Part shown: positions 6,001 through 9,000 of the stretch, one piece after another
Numbering within the stretch: position 1 is the first letter of the stretch
How the letters are laid out: every line of letters begins with the position of its first letter
From: a virus
Taxonomy: Duplodnaviria; Heunggongvirae; Uroviricota; Caudoviricetes
IMG/VR virus record: IMGVR_UViG_2740892231_000003
Length of the DNA stretch: 31,603 nt
Reading direction: 5' to 3' (one strand)
Made by a program: the position numbers

Positions 6001-9000
6001 CGTCACGATGTTTGGTATTTTCAAAAAGAAAACCCGCAGAGCAGCAGCGGAAATTAAAAAGTTTGAGAAACGCGATCTGGCACAGGCGGTTATTAATGCT
6101 GCCTACCTGGTAGCCTATGCAGATGGTGAATGTGAGGCTTCAGAGAAAGCGAAGATCGAACAGGTATTACGTAACCAGCCTGCGTTGTCCGCGTTTACGT
6201 CAGAAATTAATGCCATCAGTGCCACGATCACAGGTCAGCTTGACACCAACTTTAAAATTGGTCGTCGAGCGGCGTTGCGTGAAATTGAAGATGTGAAACA
6301 CGATACGCGTGAAGCGGAAGATGTGCTGGATGTGGCGGTGGCTATTGCTGAAGCAGATGGTGAAATTGAGCCGGAAGAGCGTAAGGTTCTGGAAGAGATT
6401 GCTGGTGTTCTTGGCCTGCGACTGGAGAACCACCTGTGACGGTAAAACTGCGTCTGGCCGCTGTGGCACTCCTGCTGTTTCTGGTGGTGATGGTGGATTT
6501 CACCACCAGGATCATGTCGGTGCTGGCGGATGGAGTGCTGGTGGTCGGTATTGTGGTGGTGCTTTTTCCTTTGGTGAAAAAGGACATGCCAGGTAGTTAG
6601 CCGGGTATCAGTCATGCCCCGAAAATTTTAAATGTCTCACAATTCAGACGGTTGACAGTTGTCTGTTTTGCGGGGAGTTTGTTAAAAGAAACAGGCATGG
6701 TGAATCCCCCTGAGCGGAGGGGCGACTGGTGCATTAGGTGTTATCTTTGATACCCAGGAAAGTAAACGCGCGGGTTTGGTGGCACCGGGCTGAACTCACC
6801 GGGAGGCACCCGGCATCATGCGCATGATGATACAGATACGCGGCTTTAGCCCCTCTCCGGAGGGGCTTTTATATGAATTTTGTAAGATATGAGTAAACTA
6901 ATTATGGACACTGTTGTTTTAGTCCGTAAGGGCATATTTGCAGAATGCAATGATTATTAAAGCATTCTTTCAATACGTTATCTGAATTTGCAGGACATTC
7001 CTGGCTGTTTTTGATTAAATCCCAGAATCTTTTATTGAATGGTACAACGTTGTAAATGGTTACAGGTAGCACTTTGTTATTAAGTACGATACCTGTGTGA
7101 GTCAACGTAAATATACTTTCAGGAGGTAAGAAAACATCCGATTGATACCAGATTATTAATTTTATTTTACTCCATATGGCTGAAAAAGATATTCCGCATG
7201 ATGGCTGGGTAACTGTATCAATCACAATCCACTTCATTTAGCCTCCTTATTTATGCTGTGCTGGTGATGTTCTGAAAAGTATAAATGATAATTTTGAATG
7301 TAAACCATAGAGCAGAATTATTTTTCTGATGTTGTTTATTGTTTATTTAAATACAGGTTTTTTATATCCCGTCTTGTAGTTTATCCATGCATACCTGCTT
7401 TATGATGAGGTTTTCATTTAAGGTATGGTTTTGTGTTTTTTTTCTGTATTGCATGTCAGGTATTTTAAAGAATTGTTTTTAATATGGTGGAAAGAACCAT
7501 GGCATTTAAACACTACGATGTGGTCAGGGCGGCGTCGCCGTCAGACCTTGCAGAGCGACTGACTCAAAAACTGAAGGAGGGGTGGCAGCCATTTGGCAGC
7601 CCTGTCGCCATCACGCCTTATACCCTGATGCAGGCCATTGCGGCGGAAGGTGATGTCACCACACCTGTGGTGGTGAAGCCGTCGGATGGAGAAGGCACAG
7701 TAATCAGCGCCACCAGCGACCCGGAGTNNNNNNNNNNTGATACACTTGCTCAAAAAATTCGTGAAGGATGGCAGCCATACGGCGGGCCGTTTTCTTCGTA
7801 TACGGATGATGGCGCAGCACTTATTCAGGCGATTGTCGCAGAAGGTGATGTGAGCACACCTGTGGTGGTGAAGCCGTCGGATGGAGAAGGCACAGTAATC
7901 AGCGCCACCAGCGACCCGGAGTATTACTTTGTTGTGGTTCTGGCAGGGCAGTCAAACGGCATGTCGTATGGTGAAGGCCTTCCGCTGCCGGAGACATATG
8001 ACCGTCCGGACCCGCGTATTAAGCAGCTGGCGCGCCGCAGTACGGTGACACCGGGCGGTGCCGCCTGTAAGTATAACGACATTATTCCGGCGGACCATTG
8101 TCTGCATGATGTGCAGGACATGAGCCGTCTTAACCATCCGAAAGCGGACCTGTCAAAGGGGCAGTACGGAACCGTGGGGCAGGGGCTGCATATCGCCAAA
8201 AAACTGCTGCCGTTTATACCGGCGAATGCGGGCATTCTGCTGGTTCCGTGCTGCCGTGGTGCTTCGGCATTCACAACGGGTGCAGACGGCACATACAGCG
8301 AATCAGCCGGTGCATCGGAAAATTCACTGCGCTGGGGTGTGGGTAAGCCGCTGTATCAGGATTTGGTGAGCCGGACTAAAGCCGCACTGGCGAAGAACCC
8401 GAAAAACCGTCTGCTTGCGGTGGTGTGGATGCAGGGAGAAGGTGATGCGGCAGTGGGGACGCATGCGCAGCATCCGGGGCTGTTTAGTGCGATGGTGAAT
8501 CAGTTCAGAACGGAGCTTGCCGGTCTGGCATCACAGAGCACAGGAGGCAGCGCATCAGCGGTACCGTGGATTTGCGGGGACACAACGTATTTCTGGAAGC
8601 AGCGTCATGCGGAAGGGTATGCATCAGTATACGGAGGGTATAAGGGTAAGGAGTCGCAGAACATTTTCTTTGTACCGTTAATGACGGATGAGAATGGTGC
8701 GAATGTGCAGACCAATAACCCGGCAGAAGACCCGGACCTGGAAGCCGTCGGTTATTACGGTTCAAAGTGGCGTAATGACCAGAAGACCTGGACATCTGTG
8801 GACAGGGCCAGCCATTTCAGTTCATGGGCTCGCCGTGGGATTATTTCCGACCGTCTGGCAACGGCGATTCTGGTGCATGCCGGGAGAACCGCTGAATTCA
8901 TTACCGGAAAACAGCCTGATACGGTGAAGCCCACCGGACCTTCCGGTGAAGGCCCGGAGAGAGAGCCGGAAGCCCCGGTCAGTAACCGAACCCTGATGAG

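Follow-up and report, generated by a model that had tools for sequence, protein, structure and literature searches.

Hfq-bound small RNAs (sRNAs) of lambdoid prophages have been described from a moron slot downstream of the late promoter pR', between a moron gene and a conserved phage open reading frame (ORF) (Tree et al. 2014, PMC4104026). One of these, EcOnc27, was recovered by Hfq cross-linking, adjoins stx2B, is convergent with the anti-sRNA AsxR (PMC4104026), and gives northern bands of ~235 and ~247 nucleotides (nt), the 247-nt band being destabilised without hfq (PMC4104026, Table S2). Eleven copies of the Rfam family STnc100 are transcribed in strain EDL933, one of them verified by northern blot (PMC5331693); an STnc100 copy downstream of stx2 has been reported from outer-membrane vesicles (PMC12370729), and one machine-learning study counted variants in such a copy among its strongest predictors of haemolytic uraemic syndrome (PMC12711010). 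PasD1 and PasD2 of enteropathogenic Escherichia coli (EPEC) are Hfq-bound sRNAs of 172-173 nt detected by RIL-seq, a ligation-and-sequencing method for RNA interactions, and are homologues of EcOnc13 (PMC8550237), with a proposed seed, UGUGAG, in the linker just before the terminator (PMC8550237, supplement). According to a preprint, PasD and STnc100 share an ancestor (10.64898/2026.05.13.724894). Here we analyse an element, copy C, in a 31,603-nt stretch of Caudoviricetes DNA (IMG/VR record IMGVR_UViG_2740892231_000003), the whole of which we call the window. A first-pass annotation had described it, at 6628-6870, as the third copy of a cassette with a terminal-inverted-repeat core, and had suggested that the element travels with or punctuates moron insertions. 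We find that copy C is an ordinary member of the already catalogued EcOnc27/PasD group of prophage small RNAs.

The membership of copy C (6624-6871, plus strand) in STnc100 is practically certain. An Rfam scan of the whole window at curated thresholds returned three matches, all to STnc100 (RF02076) and far beyond chance, the gathering score of the family being 47 bits (Table 1). Repeat finding and three-way alignment recovered the same three homologous units, A, B and C, with pairwise identities of 61-72%; copy C matches copy B at 80% identity over 199 nt, and two blocks of it match copy A at 72-82%. The third copy seen in the first pass is therefore a genuine homologous unit with a full-length family match. 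All consensus helices of STnc100 are found in it, namely the closing helix P1, the CCCCU/AGGGG hairpin, the GGGU...ACUC hairpin, the CCGGG-AGGCA-CCCGG hairpin and the terminator, and it lies in a lambdoid-prophage late region, with TerB and DUF3927 upstream and iraM, a SASA esterase, holin and lysozyme downstream. Set against RF02076, copy C has the same helices, terminator arrangement and prophage setting and differs nowhere essential, its centre and 3' linker being variant. EcOnc27 itself was confirmed as STnc100, scoring 207.7 bits in prophage Sp5 of strain Sakai with AsxR directly after it on the other strand; copy B is a close EcOnc27 homologue, and the EcOnc27 northern probe aligns with it at 2366-2400 with two mismatches. 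A permissive Rfam search of positions 1-12000 (E up to 1) gave the three STnc100 matches only, with no AsxR, AgvB or other family, and ARAGORN found no transfer RNA (tRNA) or transfer-messenger RNA (tmRNA) genes in the window. The short string CGCGGGUUCA...GAACUC bears a resemblance to the T arm of tmRNA. All three copies can thus be assigned to STnc100, whose representatives beside stx genes are RNAs of high abundance. The family itself is not new; two points that may be of use to work on it are a covarying pseudoknot in the core and three linker types in three copies.

Family copies were gathered with the 21-mer CTCACCGGGAGGCACCCGGCA, which covers P5, as the search key. It occurs exactly in at least 120 viral contigs and 86 genome contigs, from Escherichia, Salmonella, Klebsiella, Enterobacter, Citrobacter, Kosakonia, Pantoea, Erwinia and other genera, and removal of near-duplicates left 101 diverse copies of many Enterobacterales genera, which were aligned with MAFFT (alignment A2). 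On this alignment 83% of cells are paired under the structure given in Table 1, and its covariation score is 0.244, compared with 0.133 for shuffles (none of 500 reached the observed score) and 0.05-0.085 when the partners were slid. Both-sided changes occur in six of the eight P1 pairs, with compensated variants such as ATGGTG/CACCAT, GTGGTG/CACCAC, GCGGTG/CACCGC and GTGATG/CATCAC; P5 is invariant among the 101 copies and, being also the search key, uninformative. What had been taken for a terminal inverted repeat is accordingly P1, an internal RNA helix with compensatory changes across the whole set, while the earlier observation that the centre differs from copy to copy holds, since this segment is unalignable among A, B and C.

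A further covarying contact joins strand X, the 6-7 nt directly after P2, to the loop of P4. Its partners change in step across lineages (CCAGUC/GACUGG, AUCAGCA/UGCUGAU, UUAACC/GGUUAA, GAGCCACAA/UUGUGGCUU and many more), the duplex has a mean energy of -8.7 kcal/mol, where shuffled loops give -3.7 and the loops of other copies -4.75, and its z-score is below -1 in 93% of copies. Counting column by column on the MAFFT alignment pairs 53% of cells, which is an undercount because of one-column offsets between subfamilies, and we used per-sequence duplex tests with controls instead. The two strands cross P4 and would therefore form a pseudoknot or loop-to-strand contact; alternatively, the pairing competes with the inner part of P4. 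The Rfam structure line draws these positions unpaired, and the preprint on the PasD relationship (10.64898/2026.05.13.724894) makes no mention of a pseudoknot.

Two other readings of the core were tried and rejected. A small ORF from the AUG in the P1 3' strand fails in that the AUG is often ACG, GCG or similar within compensated P1 pairs, and a sigma-54 promoter at TGGCAC in the P4 loop, judged by direct reading, is missing the -12 GC and has an unconserved motif.

Four helices and a pseudoknot kept across genera by compensatory changes bear directly on the idea that the copies are plain segmental duplications, or a recombination linker, without any RNA function; the first-pass annotation had itself named the absence of conserved secondary structure as grounds for that reading. 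The C module is colinear with the B module, mosaic breakpoints are present and the tandem layout is probably a product of scaffolding, all of which would fit, but neither the compensatory changes nor the abundance of the relatives as RNAs would be expected, and we consider the idea highly improbable. A role as recombination linker is compatible with the sRNA explanation and no replacement for it.

The mobile-element idea fares slightly worse still. In it copy C would be a non-autonomous cassette resembling a miniature inverted-repeat transposable element, with terminal inverted repeats, inserting next to morons; the several copies per genome beside different accessory genes and the inverted repeats inside the element were its attraction. 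We compared the flanks of the copies for target-site duplications, the check proposed in the first pass, and found none at A, B or C. The best direct repeats spanning the ends are 4, 3 and 5 nt long, lengths reached by shuffled sequence in 89%, 99.7% and 29% of trials respectively. The inverted repeats are internal (P1, the P2/terminator pair and the terminator itself), none of them is terminal, and they behave as RNA helices under compensatory substitution. One end-to-end pair does occur in copy C (6638-6646 with 6874-6882, 89% complementary), and it is not visible at the ends of A or B. Homology ends raggedly, and at different points in different subfamilies; the element keeps one orientation and one position with respect to the late operon; and the block-wise reassortment between copies points to homologous recombination. 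Mobility in this sense is scarcely credible, and it can be dropped.

The breakpoints themselves are informative. Phage matches to 5900-7500 stop at 6725 or start at 6790, within the element, and 421 of 512 pairs of loci sharing a flank share only one, so that the element marks mosaic junctions. Copy C together with the genes after it aligns colinearly, at 71-90% identity, with copy B and the genes that follow there; the repetition is at the level of whole modules and in the window probably comes from the joining of contigs of two prophages. The pattern is one of homologous recombination in conserved blocks, not transposition. Copy C is a self-contained unit, with its own terminator and a secondary structure that is conserved. 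The suggestion that the element punctuates moron insertions survives, in that it sits at the boundary between accessory and late genes, a slot already described by Tree et al. 2014 (PMC4104026), whereas travel by transposition does not.

Table 1. Features of the window discussed in the text, with positions in window numbering
Feature	Position	Strand	Remarks
Homologous unit A	~1899-2150		
Homologous unit B	~2171-2425		
Homologous unit C	~6623-6876		start at 6623/6624
Copy A, STnc100	1941-2152	+	downstream of stx1B; 138.7 bits; model positions 1-206 of 206
Copy B, STnc100	2214-2427	+	EcOnc27 type; 198.4 bits; model positions 1-206 of 206
Copy C, STnc100 (RF02076)	6666-6878	+	139.4 bits; E = 5.6e-31; model positions 1-206 of 206
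Leader boxes of the E. coli subfamily	6622-6647	+	AAAATTTTAAAT (6622-6633) and CTCACAATTCAG (6636-6647); common to A, B and C
TTGACA hexamer	6652-6657	+	GAGTTT after 17-nt spacer; subfamily form GTTGA(C/T)
Promoter-like site	6659-6688	+	TTGTCT 6659-6664, 18 nt, TG 6680-6681, TAAAAG 6683-6688
Folded core	6695-6821	+	STnc100 model and covariation
Helix P1	6695-6702 with 6814-6821	+	covariation
Helix P2	6707-6711 with 6718-6722	+	covariation
Putative pseudoknot	6726-6732 with 6782-6788	+	strand X CUGGUGC with P4 loop GCACCGG; duplex tests
Variable central segment, local hairpin P3	6733-6769	+	unalignable between A, B and C; length and sequence vary in the family
Helix P4	6772-6779 with 6790-6797	+	covariation
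Helix P5	6799-6803 with 6809-6813	+	consensus structure
Linker, candidate seed region	6822-6847	+	GCAUGAUGAUACAGAUACGCGGCUUU; in relatives, site of the proposed PasD1/2 seed and of the EcOnc Hfq peaks
Intrinsic terminator	6848-6871	+	8-bp stem AGCCCCUC/GAGGGGCU, loop UCCG, then UUUU; terminator scan
TerB	5936-6439		upstream of copy C
DUF3927	6436-6600		upstream of copy C
iraM, RpoS-protecting anti-adapter	6902-7237	-	NCBIfam, 158 bits
Second DUF1737/SASA esterase, nanS-p type	7484-9217		downstream of copy C; holin and lysozyme next
10-N gap, Stx1c phage to different prophage	5270-5279	.	linkage of C to A and B depends on this join
N runs 1-8	5270-5279, 7728-7737, 9193-9202, 10146-10155, 12190-12199, 13415-13424, 13503-13512, 13911-13920		
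N runs 9-16	15575-15584, 16246-16255, 28659-28668, 28797-28806, 29204-29213, 30415-30424, 31171-31180, 31517-31526		

The promoter of copy C was originally credited with a consensus TTGACA -35. The hexamer is indeed present, but it has no usable -10, GAGTTT being what follows at 17 nt, and a consensus promoter scan of copy C gave no site there or elsewhere in the copy. Among the 101 copies the commonest best match is TTGACn at -36 with TAAATT at -12 relative to P1, and in ~48 of them the best match falls at -11 to -15. This shared position lies 7 nt downstream of TTGACA in copy C, where TAAAAG is followed after 6 nt by G6695; we predict a start at about G6695 and an RNA of ~177 nt (6695-6871). 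The ends of PasD2 were mapped by RNA-seq and northern blot (PMC8550237), and its start is the first base of P1, after TTGACT, 18 nt, TAAAAA and 7 nt.

A second start is plausible. The E. coli subfamily keeps 60 nt further upstream, consisting of AAAT(G/T)TTAAAT, CTCACAATTCAG and GTTGAC, each block 80-99% conserved in 37 distinct E. coli-type copies, and the northern bands of EcOnc27, the Sp5 orthologue, exceed the ~171 nt expected from a P1 start by 55-70 nt. For these two reasons a longer form starting near 6640, with TTGACA transcribed, can be entertained, and the leader boxes may be the site of an upstream promoter or of the point where such a ~230-nt RNA has its 5' end. We had also taken the EcOnc27 Hfq peak (Table S2: 1268411-1268490) as proof that TTGACA is transcribed, an argument now withdrawn because the peak, once corrected for a coordinate offset, covers the 3' part of the RNA rather than the leader. 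The coordinates of Table S2 of PMC4104026 lie 135-139 nt below those of NC_002695.2 at Sp5, as calibrated on AsxR, and apparently are unshifted at Sp3; since AsxR sits 135-139 nt lower there than its Rfam position in NC_002695.2, the table uses older coordinates. An uncorrected overlay on NC_002695.2 puts the EcOnc27 peak on the 5' leader, its true place being ~140 nt further, in the 3' part. The probe listed as "EcOnc13" was not used; it resembles the copy A leader (four mismatches) and is absent from Sakai 900800-902000, where the EcOnc13 peak lies.

Copy C has both an imperfect promoter match at the family position and a terminator. The GC-rich 8-bp terminator stem, 6848-6867, is followed by UUUUAUAU, with a U run of four, and the hairpin AGCCCCTCTCCGGAGGGGCT is identical at 20 of 20 positions to the copy A terminator at 2122-2141, as the first reading of the sequence had it; a strict terminator occurs within ~80 nt past the core in 47 of the 101 family copies. 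Between core and terminator lies the linker, over which Hfq peaks fall directly for EcOnc13 and after coordinate correction for EcOnc27. The 3' linker is of a different type in each of the copies A, B and C, as would fit non-redundant sets of targets. The C-type 3' domain is present in 338 of 5426 closed E. coli genomes, and the whole C element at 94% identity or more in ~10 genomes.

These comparisons lead us to favour, with moderate confidence, a role for copy C as a trans-acting sRNA of the type of its relatives, a mechanism we infer from the experiments on EcOnc27/sRNA103, EcOnc13 and PasD1/PasD2. Active in the lysogen, a sigma-70 promoter directly upstream of P1 would give an RNA of ~177 nt (6695-6871), to which in the E. 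coli subfamily a second, upstream start may add a ~230-nt form. Hfq would bind the 3' part of the RNA, the variable linker (6822-6847) would pair in trans with host or prophage messenger RNAs (mRNAs) or sRNAs, and the conserved folded core would serve as a common scaffold, which may itself confer stability or bind a partner. The element may also act in cis. Its terminator would halt transcription from moron promoters and from its own promoter before the lysis genes, and Q-modified RNA polymerase would pass it during lytic growth; the terminator thus probably shields the lysis genes from upstream transcription until that polymerase overrides it. The conserved 5' and 3' blocks would provide homology for recombination, which would place the element at mosaic junctions without its being mobile itself.

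Several observations sit uneasily with an Hfq-dependent sRNA. Both candidate promoters of copy C are imperfect, TTGTCT/TAAAAG (6659-6688) being without the T at -7 and the TTGACA site (6652-6680) without a usable -10. The U tract, UUUU before an A, is short and so poorly suited to Hfq binding, and PasD RNA levels are little changed in an hfq mutant (PMC8550237, Table S2). Folded alone, copy C misses the consensus fold, with unremarkable energies (z = -0.86 and -1.32); this single-sequence fold mispairs P2 with the terminator, and we relied on the comparative evidence instead. It also should be considered that the core is conserved far beyond what a passive scaffold would need, the 21-mer being identical from Pantoea to Escherichia, with the caveat that, as the search key, it is invariant in our set by construction. 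Such extreme conservation hints at a function that the sRNA model leaves unexplained. It is possible, if doubtful, that the ~125-nt pseudoknotted core, nearly invariant in lambdoid prophages from Escherichia to Pantoea and Erwinia, has a function of its own and that the E. coli sRNAs (EcOnc27, PasD and copies A, B and C) are interchangeable 3' seed modules placed on it; the core may, for example, bind a host or phage protein or RNA polymerase, or control late transcripts in cis.

Lambda 6S RNA and StxS, the sRNA as which the pR' leader of Stx phages is known, are both short and terminated and arise from lambdoid late promoters. Like these, copy C would combine a prophage promoter with a short terminated RNA in the lysogen, in a place upstream of the lysis genes, and Q would override its terminator; unlike them, it is not adjacent to Q, and Stx phages have a separate pR'. 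We know of no sequence similarity between copy C and either RNA. Copy C could nonetheless belong to a mainly cis-acting late-operon element, its promoter, folded leader and terminator forming a unit, or the relic of one, like pR'-6S RNA-tR', in which the pseudoknotted core acts on RNA polymerase, Q-modified complexes or the late mRNA and sRNA activity in trans is a later addition. In favour of such a unit, the element is always between Q and the lysis cassette and co-oriented, across three Q and three holin families, and the core stays much the same from genus to genus where the linkers do not; in a Klebsiella spallanzanii prophage (L197, 1997-2540, minus strand), 543 nt separate Q from the holin and the sole consensus promoter is the element's own. 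Yet the element is tied to no single Q family, and Q-binding sites are family-specific. Copy C lies more than 2.5 kb downstream of Q in the window and in closed genomes, past a methylase, three tRNA genes, TerB and DUF3927, and at least ~146 nt separate Q from the element's promoter in every locus examined. In L197 a hairpin resembling a terminator follows Q at once, so that a separate short late leader would have room there. The invariant GGUGAAU is without the A at position 2 of a -10-like pause element (the -11 A equivalent, by direct reading), and read-through of the element's own terminator in lysogens would express the lysis genes. We hold this alternative to be rather unlikely overall, although lambdoid prophage sRNAs from conserved positions 3' of the Q-antiterminated pR' are a precedent for it (Tree et al., PMC4104026). 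For some Klebsiella-type loci the late-leader reading may hold, as a minority view, and loci of the L197 type are a good place to test whether the element is a late leader. In L197 there are two terminators after the STnc100 copy and one before it.

The element, in which P1 closes a compact junction of several helices that has a pseudoknot and unvarying bases at the junction and in the loops, and in which a terminator comes next, also invites comparison with a riboswitch, that is, a leader sensing a metabolite or signal and controlling its own terminator and thereby the downstream gene. Copy C has alternative pairings that could be read in this way, 6814-6821 with 6822-6829 and the P2 3' strand with the terminator 5' strand. 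These alternatives are unconserved in A, B and other genera, the downstream genes (holins, endolysins, esterases, convergent iraM) are heterogeneous and form no consistent class, and the relatives accumulate as discrete terminated Hfq-bound RNAs, all of which makes a riboswitch very improbable. As observations in their own right, the P1 3' strand CAUCAUGC directly precedes its perfect complement GCAUGAUG in copy C, so that the first 8 nt of the linker are able to pair with it in place of its P1 partner, and the P2 hairpin (6707-6723) nearly repeats the terminator hairpin (6849-6865), the two being 76% complementary over 17 nt. Both could allow alternative folds; copies A and B and the other genera keep neither.

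Returning to the sRNA explanation, the described relatives differ from copy C in several respects. EcOnc27/sRNA103 (Sakai Sp5/EDL933) is likewise an STnc100 member between a moron, in that case the toxin, and nanS-p; compared with it, copy C has a different centre and linker, follows TerB/DUF3927 rather than stx, and faces convergent iraM where EcOnc27 faces the convergent anti-sRNA AsxR. PasD2 occupies the same slot as copy C, with DUF3927 before and the esterase after, and has in common with it P1, the GAAUCC junction, P4 and a hairpin like P2; its promoter stands at the same distance from P1 as the candidate promoter of copy C, and it keeps the pseudoknot as AAUGAUC/GAUCAUU. The PasD type (PasD1/2 of EPEC E2348/69 and EcOnc13 of Sakai Sp3) is without the full P5 hairpin, having GGGAGGC only, and has a different linker with the seed UGUGAG; in Sakai Sp3 it falls below the Rfam STnc100 cut-off. 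The anti-sRNAs AsxR and AgvB (RF02703, RF02702) resemble the element in their moron slot, Hfq binding and modular make-up of a variable and a conserved part, and differ from it in being 51-60 nt long, on the opposite strand and without a folded core.

The neighbours named in the first pass, a TerB-like moron and an AT-rich island, were both recovered, with TerB and DUF3927 upstream and an island of GC content 0.29-0.35 carrying iraM downstream; iraM is a separate moron on the opposite strand, convergent on the sRNA gene. Copies A and B have stx1B on one side and the first esterase on the other, and the toxin is of subtype Stx1c. The same boundary between accessory genes and late lysis genes holds the element in prophages of several genera, where the genes of both flanks are mostly co-oriented with it: upstream are Q proteins of several families and a methylase, and downstream three holin families, two endolysin types, Rz and the esterase. 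In PQ600364.1, "hypothetical protein" coding sequences at 2401-2700 and 2682-2834 overlie STnc100 copies A and B; under C-type matches RefSeq has nothing or just the adjacent DUF3927 gene. Among the phage records seen, LC710661.1 alone names its STnc100 copy.

The placement of copy C 4 kb from the other copies needs qualification. Copy C itself is real, with identical 301-nt sequences in six closed genomes, but the distance crosses the 10-N gap at 5270-5279 (Table 1), and the two sides belong to different prophages. Positions 1-5269 are 99.9% identical to phage phiSTEC1589-Stx1c, whose esterase module runs straight to the holin, while the window from 5280 onward is 98-99% identical to a different, non-Stx prophage (strains 2013C-3181 and STEC1589) with the order Q, methylase, three tRNA genes, TerB, DUF3927, element, iraM, esterase and holin; in STEC1589 the C-type copy is in a prophage without an stx gene. 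The window contains 16 runs of N, each exactly 10 long, and exact 68-nt repeats stop right at several of them (5202-5269 equals 10078-10145), as is typical of joins at shared k-mers. The window therefore looks like a scaffold, put together from the short-read contigs of several prophages that resemble one another, in which gene order across the gaps is unreliable and should not be interpreted. The tandem A-B-C layout occurs in no closed E. coli genome of our collection and is probably a scaffolding product. A pre-holin stretch comprising a terminator hairpin, a ribosome-binding region and the first codons ATGGAAAAAATCACA is present in three copies (5180-5279, 10056-10155 and 10323-10422), two of which end at N gaps; this repeat is probably the node at which contigs of different prophages were joined.

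Two further sRNA candidates were noted elsewhere in the window. On the minus strand at 2425-2535, a strong terminator (CCGCTCTTCCCGGGGCGG then T8) converges on the copy B terminator, and ~85 nt upstream of it stands a block, CAGTTGCGCAG, that recurs in Sp5 in the region upstream of AsxR. The position is the convergent anti-sRNA slot, with a body unlike AsxR and no AsxR or AgvB match, and it may hold a different anti-sRNA-like gene. The northern probe for PasB from Pearl Mizrahi et al. finds a match with three mismatches at 28688-28710 on the minus strand, in the structural-gene region, where PasB has been reported, and a PasB-like sRNA may be encoded there.

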